This document shows positions 30,368 through 59,010 of a stretch of DNA of 64,000 bases, in pieces. The stretch comes from a virus. Made by a program: the position numbers and the translations under genes. The stretch is taken from the IMG/VR virus record IMGVR_UViG_3300045988_163435, positions 30,425-94,424 of that record. One strand, written 5' to 3'. A model generated the notes under the pieces. The model saw nothing but the letters and a program-made list of their open reading frames with translations, was not told where the DNA came from and did not search any database. The first letter of the stretch is position 1; each line of letters opens with the position of its first letter.

Positions 30368-31255
30368 TTACCTACAGTTACATGTGGCAACCTTGGCTCC
30401 ACTATTAATGAATGTTCTTTTCCAAAGGTCAATCGCCATGTTTAGATCACCACATTCAATGGCAAACTTAATCGCATCGCATTTTAGAATATAATCCATG
30501 AACGGCACATAAGGAATATCATCACATCCTGCACACAACATCTGTTTGACATATGACATTGAAATGTCATAAAATCCCTTCCAATCAATTGTAACTCCGA
30601 CAACGTACCCATCGACCTTAGTTGGAGTATCGCCGTCTCCGATGGTTTCTATGTGAATAACATGTTCTCCACCATTTGCATCAAACACTGCAAACTTGCT
30701 TGATTGACCAACAACAGAAAGCCTGATATCTTTTGTGTCTGAAGGATTGCTTACTGATACGTCGTCTATAGATGCATGCCACGTCTTGTCTTCAATTGGA
30801 GTATCGTTTTCTTTTCCATATTCGACATAAACTACAAGCATGCTGTTTTTAAACGTGCCAAGCGTTTCGTTATTTTTACAAGGAGTGCAGTCGAAGTCGG
30901 CCCTGTCGTCACAAATCTTGTCTGACGTGTCTTTCGTGACTTCTGTAGCATAATCTTTTCTAGAAGAATTCCAGCCATAATAATCTCCTTGAGTAGCAAT
31001 GTGCGAAAGCTTTGACACACCGGAAATCATGTCTTCTTTATAAAGGGTTGCTTTATAAGAAGTTGAGCCAACCTCTACATAAAACAACGGCTTTCCTGAA
31101 GGCTTGTTGTCGCGATTACCCCTGTATGTTGACTGATCGTCAATAGTTACGCTCTTGATGACATAAGATTCGCCTAAACCGTTAACCAAGTCGATATCTA
31201 TATCGAGGCTTAGTCTGTCATCGCTTATCTTTAGTTTGTTGAATTTAATCTCCAT
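30368..31255 (-). CDS. hypothetical virion protein (295 aa)
   Basis: ORF directly downstream of a terminator-bounded, probably highly expressed gene. Cys-rich C-terminus. Confidence 0.35.
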   Translation of the reverse strand: MEIKFNKLKISDDRLSLDIDIDLVNGLGESYVIKSVTIDDQSTYRGNRDNKPSGKPLFYVEVGSTSYKATLYKEDMISGVSKLSHIATQGDYYGWNSSRKDYATEVTKDTSDKICDDRADFDCTPCKNNETLGTFKNSMLVVYVEYGKENDTPIEDKTWHASIDDVSVSNPSDTKDIRLSVVGQSSKFAVFDANGGEHVIHIETIGDGDTPTKVDGYVVGVTIDWKGFYDISMSYVKQMLCAGCDDIPYVPFMDYILKCDAIKFAIECGDLNMAIDLWKRTFINSGAKVATCNCR

Positions 31256-31267
31256 ATCGACTTGTTA

Positions 31268-31296
31268 ATAAAAAAGGGGCGCTTGTGACGCCCCCT
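31268..31296 (-). terminator. intrinsic terminator after the 333-aa gene
   Basis: Minus strand: GGGGCG-TCACAAG-CGCCCC followed by TTTTTTATT. Confidence 0.75.
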
Positions 31297-31310
31297 CGGT
31301 TGAATATATA

Positions 31311-32312
31311 TTAGGCCACGTCAGACTTGACACCGTCATTGAAATAAACGGTGAGCCCAAGAACCTTGGCGATAGCGCTGGCATCCGTTGCCTCGAGAAC
31401 ACCGGCCGGAGCAACAAGCGTGAGCGTCTTTGCGGAGTGCTGGATATCCTCGTTGTCGCCATTCCAGTAATACTGAATGTCAATGGTGTCATAACCAGCG
31501 GCAAGATTAGGGTCAACAAGATACTTGGTATCAATGTTATTCGGCCAACCAACGAAACGATAGATGTCGCCACGCTCGCCATGAGTGAAATACTCAAGAT
31601 CAGCGATATCACGAGCGTTACTGAGAACTGCGCCAGTAACCGGATCAGTAGCATCTACAACAGTAGGCTCACTTACAACAATCCAGTCATAACGGAGACC
31701 GTCGATGAACACAGGCACTCCAGATACGACAAAGTGGAGAACCTCCTGTTGCATCTTGCCGAGATGCCAAGGCTGCATGCATTCTGTAACAACAACTCCG
31801 TTAGCTGTATCATCGTCAACCTTGATAATAGGAGTAATTGAGTTCTCCTTCTTGAAGGCCTTGACAATGGCGTTCTTGAGGGCTGTATAGAATTCTGTCT
31901 TAGACATAGCCTTCTTGACATAAACATCCGCGTGCTTCACAATCTGCTCGGCGTCTGACATTCCAATAAACTGGAAATAAGTGAACCTTGCGATATATGA
32001 ATAGCCGGCAGGAACGTTTCCATCAGAATCAAGAACATCATCACTGACAGTGAGAGTGTACTTCTTTACCTTTGGAGCAGTCTTGGCTGCTGACCTGAAA
32101 GAGACTGACACAGCCTTACCACAATCGATAAGGTCTGACCTCATGGGCTCGCCTGACGCGCCCACATGAGTTACATAAAATGAAGTGCCGCTGAGAGTAG
32201 ACGGGATGAATGTGGTTCCTGCGGCCGCACCCTTCTTGACAGCAGCTGCGTTGGCGCCCTTGGCTGTAACTACATAAAGCTGGCGCGCCTGATTTACACT
32301 AAAATTAGCCAT
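31311..32312 (-). CDS. abundant-looking virion protein (333 aa; capsid-accessory/decoration candidate)
   Basis: ORF starting MANFSVNQARQLYVV, with higher-GC codon usage and its own strong terminator, three genes downstream of the MCP. Function is inferred from context only. Confidence 0.35.
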   Translation of the reverse strand: MANFSVNQARQLYVVTAKGANAAAVKKGAAAGTTFIPSTLSGTSFYVTHVGASGEPMRSDLIDCGKAVSVSFRSAAKTAPKVKKYTLTVSDDVLDSDGNVPAGYSYIARFTYFQFIGMSDAEQIVKHADVYVKKAMSKTEFYTALKNAIVKAFKKENSITPIIKVDDDTANGVVVTECMQPWHLGKMQQEVLHFVVSGVPVFIDGLRYDWIVVSEPTVVDATDPVTGAVLSNARDIADLEYFTHGERGDIYRFVGWPNNIDTKYLVDPNLAAGYDTIDIQYYWNGDNEDIQHSAKTLTLVAPAGVLEATDASAIAKVLGLTVYFNDGVKSDVA

Positions 32313-34070: not shown

Positions 34071-34085
34071 AAAAACTTCTTTCTT

Positions 34086-34126
34086 AAAATAATAAACGCG
34101 GAGAGGGCATCAACCCACCCCGCGTT
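34086..34126 (-). terminator. intrinsic terminator after the last MCP exon
   Basis: Minus strand: AACGCGG-GGTGGGTTGATGCCCTCT-CCGCGTT (7-bp outer stem plus an inner GGG/CCC) followed by TATTATTTT. It lies 41 nt after the TAA at 34168-34170. Confidence 0.7.
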
Positions 34127-34167: not shown

Positions 34168-34322
34168 TTACTCCGAAAGGATTGACGGAATGACTGACAT
34201 TGTTCTGGTTGGATCAAGTACACAAACTCCGAGAGTAGCCATACGGTGCATAACCGCGGCATCCTCATCAAAACTCATGAACTGATTACCGATTCGACCA
34301 GTAAAGGGATCGCGAAGGCCCC
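34168..34322 (-). CDS. major capsid protein, exon 4 (C-terminal 50 aa + stop)
   Basis: By-eye translation of the minus strand gives (W)GLRDPFTGRIGNQFMSFDEDAAVMHRMATLGVCVLDPTRTMSVIPSILSE*. There is no upstream start codon. It begins right after a G that ends an intron homologous to intron 1. Confidence 0.75.
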
Positions 34323-35093
34323 CGATTGTGTTACCTCGCAAGCTTTTTATCTCGCGAATCTTTAGATTTCTTATCTCTAAAGTCCAGCGTACATTTTCAT
34401 CTCAAAAGAGATGCCGGATACTCTTGGTGGAATTATATTCTTTTTATTAAAAGTTTCATCCACTACGCGTTACAATGATAATCTTTTTAAGGATTATTTT
34501 ATCTCGGTATTCTCTAAGAATTTTTTACGAATATCATTACATCTTTCGCCATAACAAATTTTCCTTATAGTTCCAAATGGCCTATTAAGAATCATTGATA
34601 TTTTCTTTGGCGTAAGATGTTTGATAAAAAACATTTCATAAATATTAAATAGTTCTTTATCAGTAAAACTTATGCCGTTATGTTTCAACCCAATTAAATA
34701 AGCGTGACGTTGTTGCTGCTCATCAGAAGACCATTCGAGATTATATAAAGCATTGTTAAGCTTATTGCCATCTTTGTGGTTCACTGTTCTGTAATTATTT
34801 GGATTTTCTATAAACGCTTCAGCCAATATTCGATGTAGATATCTATAGTAATATTTGTTGTCTTTGAACAATCTTACTTGAATATATCCACTATTAGACT
34901 TTCTGCGTCCAATTGACATAAAGTTTCCATTTTTAGTTAATATTCTTCCATCTGAATAAACTGTGTATTCAGGAAATTCTTTTATATTCTTAAATAATTC
35001 CATAATATATGGTTTATAAAATAATATTAATAGAGTTCACCGATTTTACCCGGTTATTCACTAACGAATCACTTCGTTAGGCAGCAAGTTCAT
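34323..35093 (-). mobile_element. group I-like intron 3 of the MCP gene (771 nt) carrying an HNH endonuclease ORF
   Basis: 5' splice site after CAGU, which pairs with GCUG (U.G). The 3' end AACACAATCG aligns with the intron 1 end AACATAATTG. About 180 nt of core are shared with intron 1, with compensatory changes in three helices. Confidence 0.7.
34494..35003 (-). CDS. HNH homing endonuclease (NUMOD4/HNH_3-like), intron-encoded
   Basis: The 169-aa ORF shows YTVYSDGRI...GYIQVRL...RYLHRILAEAF...VNHKDGNKLNNALYNLEWSS, the classic phage HNH endonuclease pattern. It is AT-rich. Confidence 0.85.
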   Translation of the reverse strand: MELFKNIKEFPEYTVYSDGRILTKNGNFMSIGRRKSNSGYIQVRLFKDNKYYYRYLHRILAEAFIENPNNYRTVNHKDGNKLNNALYNLEWSSDEQQQRHAYLIGLKHNGISFTDKELFNIYEMFFIKHLTPKKISMILNRPFGTIRKICYGERCNDIRKKFLENTEIK

Positions 35094-36291
35094 ACTGATA
35101 GCCTCGATACTCTGGTTGTCCCTTAATCTGACACTTGAAGATATTTGGCTGATCAGGTGTGCCAATATAGAAAATGTCAAATCTGTAAGACTGTGCTACT
35201 CCACCTTCAGGATGCAGTACCTTGTTACGAACAGGATCATCATACATTGGAAGTACGTTAAGCTTAACCTTAACTCCCAATGGAGCGATCCACTCTGTTA
35301 CCTGATAGTCAGTGAGTGACACTGCGTTACCAGGAGCAAAGTTAGCACTGGTCTTGTTGAAATATGAAGGGTTCTGGGTTGACATCATAGGCATCCAACC
35401 AGAAGCGGTATTCTTAGCCTCACGGTTAAAAATAAGCGCACCCTTTTCTCCAGTGTTGATTACAAAAGTGCGATCACCGAAATCAAGCTTAGCAGCAGAC
35501 AGCTCATAAAGAGCGTCGAGAATCAGCTTCATGACAGAATGAGTATCGTTGTAATACATGATATTACCATACTCCATCTGCTCGAAGAGACCAGCTCCTG
35601 TCTTGATGGCATTTCCACTCTTTCCGATGTTGAGATATTCTCCATTAGCGTTTCTATTGGAACGACCAAACAGAATAGCGTTGTTTTTATAGTCGCTAAA
35701 GGTCTGCTCGAACTCCCACTCAACATTGTGCATCCACATGTTTGATGTCGTGTGCTCAATCTTCCCACCAGCAGTCTCCTTTACAATAGGAATACCGACA
35801 GCAAGTTTCTTATTAAGCATCGAACCTGGAACCTTGTGCTGAAGACGAATGGTAGACCACTCGTTGCGCATAGATACCGGAGTCGAGAACGAAATATCGC
35901 CAACCTTCCTTGACAGCTCACGCTCGACGAACGCAGCTTCAATAGAGAATTTCTCTCCTGCAAGAAGTCTCTCGGCAGGCACTCCGTTGACGTTCCCTCC
36001 GGCAAGTTCGACCTTGTATATGGCCTGACTTCCCTCCATGCGAGGATCGCCAAGAATTCTGAACTGATAAATCTCATTCAAGTTGCCTACTACATACTCG
36101 CCATCTGAGCACCAATCCTCGTTGAACACAAGATAGAACGGAGTGGTATTCGCACCGACCATTCCAGATGCTGATGTCACAGGAGTTCCATCTTCAAGAC
36201 GAGCCTCTACAAGAGGTACGTTTCTACGGCTTGAACCAATAACCTCCCACGTATACTCTGAATCCAAATATGTTATTCTGCTTTTACGCAA
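35094..36291 (-). CDS. major capsid protein, exon 3 (399 codons + 1 nt)
   Basis: The track ORF 35077..36291 begins at TTG, not ATG. It directly follows the intron 2 3' end (P9 hairpin CATTACG-GAAA-CGTAATG then AG). Its 404-aa size is too short for a crAss-like MCP unless it is joined to the flanking exons. Confidence 0.75.
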
Positions 36292-36537
36292 CTCATTACG
36301 TTTCCGTAATGTTCAGACTATACCATCATCTCTTTTTTCAAGAGATGGATCTATTATAGTCGTTGAACCTTCATTAATAACATTAATGCTTGGCTGCTGA
36401 TTGGCCAATCTGCAAAATTTTTAAACATTCACGTTTACCTTTACAGGTTGCGTTGTAGTTTTTGCAGCTCTAAGGCGTTTCCAGCAATTTAAGATCTTTG
36501 CTTTATCATATCGCTATGATAAGGGACAATTCATTTT
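36292..36537 (-). mobile_element. canonical ORF-less group I intron 2 of the MCP gene (246 nt)
   Basis: On the minus strand: P1 GGAU|AAAAUGAAUU-GUCC. P2: TTATCATA-GCGA-TATGATAA. P element: AAATTGCTGGAAACG. Q element: AATCAGCAGCCAAG. P6: CATTAAT-GTT-ATTAATG. R element: GGTTCAACGACTATAAT. P8: CATCTCTT-GAAAAA-AGAGATG. S element: GGTATAGTCTG. P9 has a GAAA loop. The intron ends in G. Confidence 0.8.
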
Positions 36538-36681
36538 ATCCTCGAATTCGTGAATAGGGAATGTATTAAGGAATGTATCCCAACTCTTCCCCCTATAATA
36601 AGCAAGCAACTGAACCATTACGTTAGTTGCCTTCTGTGGCGCAAGTTGATAAATAGCGCCCAAGTGATTTTCTTTAGTTAG
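36538..36681 (-). CDS. major capsid protein, exon 2 (48 aa)
   Basis: By-eye translation gives LTKENHLGAIYQLAPQKATNVMVQLLAYYRGKSWDTFLNTFPIHEFED. The open frame is bounded by TAA upstream and TAG downstream and has no start codon. Confidence 0.7.
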
Positions 36682-36951
36682 CAATTATGTTATCCTAAAG
36701 GCTTTTTATCCTCTAGTTCTTACACTTTACCATTGTGCAAGTCCAGCATATATTTTCATCAATTCTGTGAATATTTTTAATTGAATTAATGTTGGGCACT
36801 CTTGGAAGAATTATATTCTATTCATAGTTTCATCTTCTATGCGTTACGCTGTACATAAGTATTATCCTATGTCTTAGCACGGTATTATCCTTTATTATTG
36901 GAGGACTTCACCGTTTTTGCCCAATTTTACAAGAGCTTAACTTGTAAGTCA
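36682..36951 (-). mobile_element. compact group I-like intron 1 of the MCP gene (270 nt, ORF-less)
   Basis: P1: exon AAGGGU pairs with GCUCUU (terminal U.G). P10: GUUA pairs with exon-2 UAAC. P3-like: TTGGGCA/TGCCCAA. P8-like: CATTAATTC..GAATTGATG. The intron ends AACATAATTG. It is a paralog of intron 3. Confidence 0.65.
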
Positions 36952-37005
36952 ACCCTTCCAATGAGAAAAGCCTACCATCTGATACTTACCGAGCAATCCG
37001 GCCAT
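36952..37005 (-). CDS. major capsid protein, exon 1 (18 aa, MAGLLGKYQMVGFSHWKG)
   Basis: The ATG at 37005 lies 42 nt downstream of the scaffold gene stop. The frame hits TGA immediately after GGT, which is the proposed 5' splice site. Confidence 0.6.
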
Positions 37006-39211: not shown

Positions 39212-39958
39212 TTAGCGATAGCGTAATTTTTCAGCGATAGCGTAAGCTGTGCGCTGCTCAACGTTGAACGAACTTGGTTTTTCATCATAAGCGACTACGA
39301 GAAATGCTGTCGGGAGTTTATCCCCTGGAACCAAAAACATAGAGTAATATGTTATACCAGGAGCAGATAAAAGTCCATATAAATACTTGTCGCTGTCTTT
39401 TAAATCCTCGACATATCCTTGTGAAGATCCTGTTCTTCCGGCATCTTGCGCGGCTTTTATGAATGCCAAATTAACGTCTTTTAGATTTTTTGCGAATGAA
39501 TTAATGTCTTGTCGTAATGATTCCATTGATGGACTTGCAAATATGAATGGTATTCCACCAAAACCAACCTGTGTATTGTGTAACTCAAACAATGTGGCAG
39601 ATCGAGCATTTGTGCAATCAATTACGTTGTCAAGATATTCCTGAATGTCTAAACGAACATCAAGGCTTCTCTGAAGCTTTTCATTATGCACGGCGTCTCT
39701 TAAATTTGCAATATGACTCACAAATTTTTTAGGAAATACGAAAAACCACACAGAAATTGCAATAATGCACATCATCGCGAGATTCTTGAGTATTCTTAGC
39801 CATCTATATTCTTTGCTGAGCAGCTTAAGTCCCTTATCAATCCAAGACACTATTGCGTTTCCTCTATTAACAAACTTGTCATCACTTGGAATATCAGGAT
39901 TACAATCAACAGGCTCGTCCATAATTGGCTCTTCTATATCTTCTTTCATATTAGTCAA
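39212..39958 (-). CDS. single-pass membrane protein (248 aa), lysis-cassette candidate
   Basis: Transmembrane segment ILKNLAMMCIIAISVWFFVF. Adjacent to the hydrolase-like gene. Confidence 0.35.
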   Translation of the reverse strand: MTNMKEDIEEPIMDEPVDCNPDIPSDDKFVNRGNAIVSWIDKGLKLLSKEYRWLRILKNLAMMCIIAISVWFFVFPKKFVSHIANLRDAVHNEKLQRSLDVRLDIQEYLDNVIDCTNARSATLFELHNTQVGFGGIPFIFASPSMESLRQDINSFAKNLKDVNLAFIKAAQDAGRTGSSQGYVEDLKDSDKYLYGLLSAPGITYYSMFLVPGDKLPTAFLVVAYDEKPSSFNVEQRTAYAIAEKLRYR

Positions 39959-40586
39959 CTATTTTAATAAACCTTTGTTCATTTACATTTATGTACGGAT
40001 TTTTCTCTACGATTCTGCCTTCGACAACAACGTGACGTTTTTGGAACATCCTGCCAATCCAACACGCTTTTGGCTTGCCGACAATCCTTTTCGATGACGA
40101 TATTACTATATATGTATCGCTATTGAATTCCGGATGCACTGTTATTTTGTTTGGATATTCAAGACTTAACGCAAGATTGTACCAGTTATTATCAGTGAGA
40201 GTCGTATCAATCTTCATGCCTTTTATGAATACCGTATCCCTAAGCACTACCGTATCTTTTTTGGAAGATGTCATTACAATCCTTGAGATGCTCTCGAGCT
40301 CCTTGTCTTTTACGCGCAATTCTTTACGCACAGCATTCATTTTTTGATTGATGCTGTCAACAGAGTTGTTTAACGCATCGATTGTGTAATTAAGGACGAG
40401 CACACTATCTTTTAGTTCTGAATTGAATAACTCGTAAGCATTTATATTACTATTCGATTTCGCCAACTCTCTATTAAGTGTGACATTCTTTTTATATAAT
40501 ACTGATGATGATACGGATAACACAATGATAACAGAGGTAATTATTGCATAAATGTAATATCTTATCTTCATGTACTTAGCCTCCAA
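39951..40586 (-). CDS. N-terminally anchored coiled-coil protein (211 aa), spanin/lysis-accessory candidate
   Basis: N-terminal TM segment YYIYAIITSVIIVLSVSSSVL followed by a coiled coil. 8-nt overlap with the next gene. Confidence 0.3.
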   Translation of the reverse strand: MEAKYMKIRYYIYAIITSVIIVLSVSSSVLYKKNVTLNRELAKSNSNINAYELFNSELKDSVLVLNYTIDALNNSVDSINQKMNAVRKELRVKDKELESISRIVMTSSKKDTVVLRDTVFIKGMKIDTTLTDNNWYNLALSLEYPNKITVHPEFNSDTYIVISSSKRIVGKPKACWIGRMFQKRHVVVEGRIVEKNPYINVNEQRFIKIVD

Positions 40587-41185
40587 TTGACGTTAGACAT
40601 TATTGATGAGGTCTGTACACCACCATTAGATGTGAAATTAATTGTAGTACGGCTAAAGTACATATACTTATCAAGTGGTGGCCCAGGTGTACTACCATTT
40701 CCGTCCTGTGATATATTCAACGTTTTGGTTATATTGTTACCGTCTGACAGAATAATATTTATGTTCCTTGGATAAGACGATGTGTTTGTACCAACATCGA
40801 TTGTTATTATGTAGTCGTATATGGATATCTTCCCGGGATCACCTGTAATAAATGTACGACTTACGCCATTCCAATTAGAAATAACATTACCATTTACTCG
40901 AATACTGCCTGCTATAGATGTCGCGATGGTACTGACATTTGCTGTGCCAGAAATAGTTACGACTGACTCGTTCGCGCTAAGACGTTGGGTATATCTCGAC
41001 ATGTTGAGAATATTTCCAACACCAATTTGTTCGAGACTTATAGTAGCATACTCATTATTATCAAATGATACCCTAAACCGTCCTTTTAATGACTCTCTTC
41101 CATTATTTTGCGAGGACGTGCTAATAACTATATCACTATTTCCGGATCCGGATGTATCGCCGCTCTTGATATAAAAATTACTCAT
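40568..41185 (-). CDS. BACON/Ig-like tail-associated protein (205 aa), paralog of 41237..41902
   Basis: N-terminus SGDTSGSGNSDIVISTSSQNNGRESLKGRFRVS and C-terminus INFTSNGGVQTSSIMSNVNWRL align with the neighbouring paralog. Confidence 0.45.
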   Translation of the reverse strand: MSNFYIKSGDTSGSGNSDIVISTSSQNNGRESLKGRFRVSFDNNEYATISLEQIGVGNILNMSRYTQRLSANESVVTISGTANVSTIATSIAGSIRVNGNVISNWNGVSRTFITGDPGKISIYDYIITIDVGTNTSSYPRNINIILSDGNNITKTLNISQDGNGSTPGPPLDKYMYFSRTTINFTSNGGVQTSSIMSNVNWRLST

Positions 41186-58826: not shown

Positions 58827-58859
58827 AACAACAAAATAATTTGAACAAAACAAACTTTG

Positions 58860-58931
58860 TTGCGGGGGCAGGGATCGAACCTGCGACCTCCAGATTATGA
58901 GCCTGGCGAGATACCACTTCTCCACCCCACA
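58860..58931 (-). tRNA. tRNA-Met (anticodon CAU; elongator or Ile2-type)
   Basis: By-eye cloverleaf on the minus strand: acceptor UGUGGGG/CCCCGCA, D arm GAGA-AGUGGUA-UCUC, anticodon arm CCAGG-CUCAUAA-UCUGG, T arm GCAGG-UUCGAUC-CCUGC. It lacks the three consecutive G-C pairs expected of an initiator. Confidence 0.85.
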
Positions 58932-58937
58932 ATATTG

Positions 58938-59010
58938 ATGCCGGTACCGGACTCGAACCGATATCCTTGGATTACAAAACCAAGATGCTAGCCCATTATA
59001 CCAACCGGCA
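58938..59010 (-). tRNA. tRNA-Thr (anticodon UGU) with irregular D arm
   Basis: Acceptor UGCCGGU/ACCGGCA, T arm AUCGG-UUCGAGU-CCGGU, anticodon arm UUGGU-UUUGUAA-UCCAA (U.U at 31:39). I could not draw a clean 4-bp D stem, although GG is present in the D loop. Confidence 0.6.

Follow-up and report, generated by a model that had tools for sequence, protein, structure and literature searches.

A Beta-type crAss-like phage major capsid protein gene in four exons, interrupted by three predicted self-splicing group I introns

We analyzed a stretch of viral DNA of 64,000 nucleotides (nt), positions 30,425 to 94,424 of the IMG/VR record IMGVR_UViG_3300045988_163435 (hereafter the window), and found that its major capsid protein (MCP) gene, located on the minus strand at 34168-37005, is present in four exons separated by three group I introns. 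Very probably, this late gene is transcribed onto a single precursor from which all three introns splice themselves out to allow synthesis of a 507-residue MCP, and the HNH endonuclease gene carried by the third intron presumably serves homing of that intron.

Four exons and their junctions

The locus contains a sole large open reading frame (ORF; 35077..36291, 404 residues), which starts with TTG. An earlier reading of the bare letters and their ORF list (the sequence-only reading) had picked out this ORF together with three further coding pieces on the minus strand, namely an ATG at 37005 that opens MAGLLGKYQMVGFSHWKG and then meets TGA, positions 36681..36538 and positions 34322..34171. All of these are present as it described them. 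It took them for the exons of one MCP gene with three group I introns in between, and this arrangement is borne out by collinearity with intact MCPs and by covariation within the introns, with the correction that the end of intron 2 had been misplaced.

An intron-less allele of the gene is found on L005, an IMG/VR contig of 98 kb whose uninterrupted MCP gene measures exactly 1524 nt and whose protein is 95% identical to the window product. Precise removal of the three introns restores the reading frame in the window, and the resulting coding sequence of 1524 nt aligned with L005 without a single gap (91.1% nt identity), all three junctions being flush. Because this alignment is ungapped, five of the six splice boundaries of the sequence-only reading are exact. 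The remaining one, the 3' end of intron 2, is G36265 and not G36292, 27 nt further downstream than had been assumed.

Exon 1 (36952..37005, minus strand) comprises codons 1-18 (MAGLLGKYQMVGFSHWKG), begins with the ATG at 37005 and is directly followed by TGA. Its last base, U36952, is paired to a G of the guide sequence, and the exon is collinear with L005 and with gp32 of crAss001. Exon 2 (36538..36681, minus strand; codons 19-66, LTKENH...HEFED) corresponds exactly to L005 4055-4198, with blastn pairing these positions with 36681-36538 of the window at 95.8% nt identity. Exon 3 (35094..36264, minus strand) holds codons 67-456 as well as the first base of W457, and blastn aligned L005 4199-5367 with window positions 36264-35096 (90.7% nt identity). 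It forms the body of the 404-residue TTG ORF, the first nine codons of which are the tail of intron 2 and the last five codons of which (YELAA), together with the stop, are the start of intron 3. Exon 4 (34168..34322, minus strand) runs from the last two bases of W457 to E507 and the stop at 34168-34170. Its coding part (34322..34171) reads (W)GLRDPF...SILSE and is collinear with L005, crAss001 and cr85_1; the corresponding blastn segment joined L005 5382-5621 to window positions 34310-34071.

The spliced coding sequence encodes a product of 507 residues which matched the Pfam family Crass_capsid (PF23898) above its cut-off, with 653 bits over residues 3-504 of 507. The product is 66% identical to crAss001 gp32, the virion MCP of that phage, and after the correction of intron 2 there is no indel at any junction. 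The conceptual 516-residue product of the sequence-only reading had already aligned by tblastn as a single full-length piece to intact crAss-like MCPs, among them those of cr85_1 and DAC15 and crAss001 gp32 (65-71% identity). Being closest to Beta-group/Steigviridae phages (crAss001 and cr85_1), the window MCP is of the Steigviridae-like (Beta-group) type of crAss-like phages. A megablast search of 6 kb around the MCP gene against GenBank phages found no close genome, its sole hit being 45 nt of a Clostridioides phage (see below), and a PHROG scan of the neighboring window ORFs returned nothing bearing on the MCP.

The position of the second junction deserves a closer look. According to the sequence-only reading, intron 2 ends at G36292 and exon 3 starts with the TTG at 36291, giving a protein of 516 residues with the junction EFED-LRKSRITYLDSEY. 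An in-frame stretch does follow G36292, and the match of intron 2 to the Rfam group I intron model RF00028 ends nearby, at 36294; the match stops there because the Rfam model has no positions for the last hairpin and the tail. However, the longer protein would contain nine residues, LRKSRITYL, that exist only in the 516-residue version and are without counterpart in crAss001, in cr85_1 or in the 95%-identical L005. When it was aligned with the uninterrupted proteins of crAss001 and cr85_1, junction 1 (KG|LT) and junction 3 (YQ|WG) were flush as predicted, whereas junction 2 carried the nine-residue insertion. The pairing between guide sequence and downstream exon (P10) also speaks against the longer protein, as guide UGAAUU and exon GAUUCA form six of six pairs if exon 3 starts at 36264 and none of six if it starts at 36291. 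Finally, the 14-nt tail before 36265 (GAAUAACAUAUUUG) is similar to those at the 3' ends of introns 1 and 3 (GGAUAACAUAAUUG and AGGUAACACAAUCG, respectively). We therefore regard a 516-residue product as extremely unlikely. With exon 3 starting at 36264 instead of 36291, the product has 507 residues, and its junction peptides read HWKG-LTK, EFED-DSEYTW (EFEDDSEYTWEVIGSSR spans junction 2) and GYQ-W-GLR. The three intron tails (36682-36695, 36265-36278 and 34323-34336, minus strand) are alike across the introns although intron 2 belongs to a different family.

The bases at the splice sites follow the group I pattern noted in the sequence-only reading. The last bases of introns 1, 2 and 3 are G36682, G36265 and G34323, respectively, and at each 5' splice site the exon's final U forms a U·G wobble with a downstream G within P1 (AAGGGU/GCUCUU with 6 bp, GGAU/GUCC with 4 bp and CAGU/GCUG with 4 bp). 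P10 comprises six of six pairs for intron 2, five of six for intron 1 and three of six, two of them wobble pairs, for intron 3. In alleles with introns, P1 pairs come about through synonymous changes in the exons (GGT vs GGA, CAG vs CAA), and intron-less alleles are without these bases. At junction 1, the synonymous change from GGA, as seen in L005, to GGT in the intron-bearing alleles supplies the splice-site U.

Downstream of the MCP stop codon lies a terminator-like hairpin with a U-rich tail (34085..34126, minus strand). A simple consensus terminator scan missed this hairpin but folding recovered it (34095-34126, -23.4 kcal/mol, z = -4.9, none of 200 shuffles being as stable), in line with the strong terminator that had been read by eye after exon 4.

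Other explanations for the interrupted frame were considered. Recoding of the TGA after exon 1 was excluded: the tRNA genes of the window, which lie next to each other at 58859-59010 (minus strand), are tRNA-Met (CAT) and tRNA-Thr (TGT) only, with no suppressor tRNA in the window, and L005 shows that the intervening DNA is an insertion. There is no sign of stop-codon reassignment in the window. Inteins were ruled out by the TGA directly after exon 1 and by stops in all frames of the inserts. Group II introns were ruled out as well, since the Rfam scans gave no group II family and the only ORF within the inserts is that of an HNH endonuclease.

Ribozymes of two families and their predicted splicing

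Intron 2 (36265..36537, minus strand) is a canonical group I ribozyme of 273 nt without an ORF. It matched the whole RF00028 model with 88.9 bits, the gathering score being 50. Intron 1 (36682..36951, minus strand) measures 270 nt, is also free of ORFs and represents a group I ribozyme with additional P7.1/P7.2 hairpins. When aligned with RF00028, it has a long stretch of additional sequence between the P7 region and P3'. We take this stretch to be the P7.1/P7.2 hairpins typical of subgroup IA, which would make the intron IA-like. Homologues of intron 1 are located at the identical nucleotide site in the IMG/VR contig L021 (97% identical), in phage cr128_1 and in bajarodcaudo virus 1. We drew the structure of intron 1 by hand (P3, P4, P5, P6, P7 as a pseudoknot, P7.1, P7.2, P8, P9 and P9.1) and laid it over the four sequences. 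In this alignment, 99.2% of the cells were paired and 10 pairs had changed on both sides.

The last 45 nt of intron 1 (36684-36728, minus strand), comprising the P9.1 hairpin and the 3' tail, are 91% identical to an unannotated stretch of the Clostridioides phage phiCDKH02 (PP767789, 29659-29703). Judged from this match, the segment may be a 3' module common to group I introns of unrelated phages.

Intron 3 (34323..35093, minus strand) has 771 nt, belongs with intron 1 to one family of group I ribozymes and houses an endonuclease gene in its P5 loop. A covariance model, R1, was built from the four-sequence alignment of intron 1 and its relatives, with P7 left out of the structure as a pseudoknot. 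In intron 3, R1 matched the 3' 229 nt (34323-34551) precisely up to the last base, G34323, at 81.7-84.6 bits (E = 5e-20 to 7e-23). The 5' 90 nt of the intron hold the matching strands of P3 (CCGGGUA/UAUCCGG), P4 (UCGGU/ACCGA) and P5 (CUCUA/UAGAG), which therefore places the HNH ORF in the P5 loop. R1 found 15 copies of the family at E < 1e-10. Across 15 members of the family the nine nested helices were 91.3% paired and 40 of the 53 pairs were compensatory, compared with 33-43% pairing when the partners were slid, in an alignment (A3) that was fitted to our own model R1 and thereby favors that structure.

The ORF within intron 3 (34494..35003, minus strand) starts with ATG and encodes 169 residues. 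It matched Pfam HNH_3 (PF13392) with 27.7 bits at residues 54-99 (cut-off 24.8) and the HNH endonuclease family PHROG 59 with 133.7 bits. The sequence-only reading had left the roughly 770 nt downstream of the large ORF empty; this is the space that the HNH ORF (35003..34494) occupies. As read from the sequence, the last eight codons of the ORF overlap P5', J5/4, P4' and the start of P6.

Guanosine-initiated splicing is established chemistry for group I introns. The MCP gene of the window would be transcribed as one late precursor containing the three introns, each of which would fold into a ribozyme and form P1 between its internal guide sequence and the last bases of the preceding exon, with the U·G pair at the splice site. 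An external guanosine would attack after the splice-site U, and the freed exon end would then attack after the last G of the intron, aided by the pairing of the guide with the next exon (P10). Three such reactions would join 37005-36952, 36681-36538, 36264-35094 and 34322-34168 to a 1524-nt mRNA encoding an HK97-fold capsid protein of 507 residues. Unspliced RNA would yield only a peptide of 18 residues because TGA directly follows exon 1.

Several points weigh against this proposal, the fitting of A3 to R1 being one of them. Of the three introns searched with RF00028, as the sequence-only reading had suggested, intron 2 alone scored clearly: intron 1 reached 34.3 bits (E = 3e-6) and thus stayed below the gathering score of 50, and intron 3 gave noise only and no hit, even when it was searched alone. 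For intron 3, the hit is missing because the endonuclease ORF splits the core. The P1 of intron 3 has only 4 bp and its P10 is weak; this intron may splice poorly or need a cofactor. RF00028 has a low sensitivity for the intron 1/3 family (34 bits or no hit), in the window as well as in L001, L002, L018 and L022. At E <= 0.01 it also does not report the introns between codons 18 and 19 of cr128_1, bajarodcaudo virus 1 and L021.

The same points might be taken to mean that at least one of the insertions no longer splices and that the MCP gene is a pseudogene, the genome being defective or dependent on a helper. The low Rfam scores of introns 1 and 3 and the weak P1 and P10 of intron 3 would fit a dead gene. 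However, the exons are free of frameshifts and stops and their product is 95% identical to the proteins of intact alleles. Between intron 3 and its copy in L027, a related contig, all 12 differences lie in the ORF, so that the ribozyme parts are the same in both. In addition, helix pairing is kept through compensatory changes, the exon bases that form P1 are maintained, and the same introns recur in complete phage genomes of approximately 95-100 kb. We consequently consider a pseudogene very unlikely and favor a gene that is still expressed by splicing.

Intron polymorphism, presumed homing and spread among relatives

The presence of the introns differs between closely related alleles. L005 (95% protein identity) has no MCP introns. 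L021 (99% protein identity), a contig that covers codons 1-311, has intron 1 only, with no intron at codons 66/67; intron 2 is thus missing from a 99%-identical allele. L027 (95% protein identity) has intron 3 only, and L018 (96%) has introns at 121/122 and 453/454. Among relatives of lower identity, L022 has an intron at 148/149, L039 has its MCP in five pieces, cr128_1 has three MCP introns and bajarodcaudo virus 1 has five. The window thereby joins a natural series of alleles with 0, 1, 2 or 3 introns which can be used to study homing and the competition between gut phages.

These alleles also bear on the general risk of metagenomic contigs, namely that the split gene arose in assembly or through the joining of reads of several phages into a chimera. 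Nothing specific in the window favors such an origin. Intron 1 recurs at its exact nucleotide position in L021 (97% identical), and so does intron 3 in L027 (98.4% identical), both being independent contigs from other samples, and the junctions are precise to the base. The probability of a chimera is therefore close to negligible, and we continue with the four-exon gene as a genuine feature of the phage.

The copies of intron 3 in the window and in L027 are 98.4% identical while the exons are 87.4% identical. All of the 12 differences between the two copies fall within the HNH ORF, 10 of them at third codon positions. This pattern points to recent lateral spread of the intron by homing and to purifying selection on the endonuclease. 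On each side of the intron 3 site, approximately 10 nt of flanking exon are common to the window and L027. The junction reads CAGT|GGGGCCTTCG in both alleles with intron 3 and CAAT|GGGGGTTGAG in the intron-less L005, the L005-type target being ...GGCTATCAAT|GGGGGTTGAGAAAT... in its wider context. From sequence, the shared bases at the junction look like a short co-conversion tract. The presumed action of the HNH endonuclease is to cut or nick the MCP allele of a co-infecting relative that lacks the intron, and repair of this allele would copy in intron 3 along with a few bases of the adjoining exons. We infer from these sequences that both splicing and homing take place.

In the other fetched loci no intron was seen at codon 66/67, and the nearest is a 74%-identical relative of intron 2 in L039, located 13 nt upstream. 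An exact-pattern scan of IMG/VR for the exon 2/intron 2 junction gave zero matches, and thus we have no second example of the 66/67 intron.

A survey of intron sites in roughly 40 fetched loci revealed at least ten sites and two intron families. Relatives with an intron-bearing MCP gene included L001 (cr128_1), L002 (bajarodcaudo virus 1), L018, L020, L022, L023, L027, L033, L034, L036, L039, L040 and L041. Members of the intron 1/3 family sit at 18/19, 121/122, 148/149, ~292, ~340, 453/454 and 457/458, and those of the intron 2 family at 61/62, 66/67 and ~459. Within the clade, a single MCP gene has between none and five introns. From the occurrence of the intron 1/3 family at so many sites, one ribozyme family may have moved repeatedly to new sites in one gene. 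Reverse splicing or an exchange of endonucleases could account for such moves. We speculate that the Beta-group (Steigviridae-like) MCP gene is an unusually active intron hot spot and that its intron load is more than a mere parasite and serves co-infecting gut phages as a weapon or barrier against each other, an idea that is tentative and which we hold to be somewhat unlikely.

Split genes in known phages and neighboring reading frames

The window MCP does not represent a new mechanism, as split MCP genes of crAss-like phages have already been described. In Delta-group crAss-like phages, group I introns were reported for the genes of MCP, PolB and primase, and an MCP from the Zeta group was found to be split into five fragments (Yutin et al., 2021; PMC7886860, Fig. 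7a). A review on Crassvirales from 2023 restates these Delta and Zeta findings (PMC10136315). The window resembles those phages in that group I introns, some with endonucleases, break its crAss-type MCP gene into several fragments, with the same consequences for ORF callers. It differs from them in that its MCP is of the Beta-group/Steigviridae type. The introns of the Delta and Zeta groups were found via protein domains (Yutin et al., 2021; PMC7886860). A search for protein domains would miss both introns 1 and 2 of the window since neither contains an ORF.

Two annotated genomes come closer. In NC_055885 (cr128_1, Mahlunavirus rarus) the MCP, also Beta-type, is in four pieces that are interspersed with one homing endonuclease and one HNH endonuclease, and PQ006092 (bajarodcaudo virus 1) has a Beta-type MCP in pieces with 'intron associated endonuclease' entries. 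Like the window, both carry the intron 1 homologue between codons 18 and 19. Their other introns are different, being located at ~292 and ~459 in cr128_1 and at 121/122, 292, 340 and 459 in bajarodcaudo virus 1. The C-terminal-side intron of both phages lies 8 nt downstream of the position of window intron 3 and is a different intron. In neither record is the first MCP exon of 18 codons annotated; we found it by tblastn at 1167-1220 of our locus L001 (NC_055885) and at 1200-1253 of L002 (PQ006092). The first annotated 'major head/capsid protein' piece starts inside exon 2 in both. What is specific to the window is the combination of sites, the intron at 66/67 and the two introns without ORFs.

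Outside the crAss-like phages, orf142 of Staphylococcus phage Twort is, according to the passage of PMC6669764 that cites Landthaler and Shub (1999), a single gene with three group I introns that was shown to splice. Twort orf142 and the window MCP are alike as single phage protein genes with three group I introns. They differ in host gene, phage lineage and bacterial phylum, and splicing was shown in Twort and is inferred from sequence in the window. The intron-encoded HNH endonuclease gp210 of phage PhiPA3 acts in phage-phage competition, and both its nicking activity and its competitive benefit have been shown (PMC11620839). Similar to the putative homing endonuclease of the window, it resides within a group I intron of an essential, conserved phage gene, and it is directed at the allele without the intron in a related phage. 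In contrast to the window, the host gene in PhiPA3 is an RNA polymerase subunit, and the endonuclease of the window is known from family membership and sequence conservation.

The window adds a Beta-type crAss-like phage whose most abundant virion protein is encoded by a gene with introns of two families, three in all. From standard gene callers one obtains a truncated 404-residue 'MCP' with a TTG start that misses exons 1, 2 and 4. As these exons are missed, MCP phylogenies and virome classifiers would mis-score the phage.

Two further regions of the window also show overlapping reading frames. Three ORFs on the minus strand (39212-39958, 39951-40586 and 40568-41185) abut or overlap and two of them start with TTG; only the middle one has a family match, a weak one to Rz-like spanins (29 bits). 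This could be a set of genes with ordinary overlaps or else a single gene that is spread over several frames. Furthermore, the ORFs 31265-31654 (129 residues) and 31311-32312 (333 residues), both on the minus strand, overlap by approximately 340 nt in different frames, which could reflect a listing artefact or a frameshift site.

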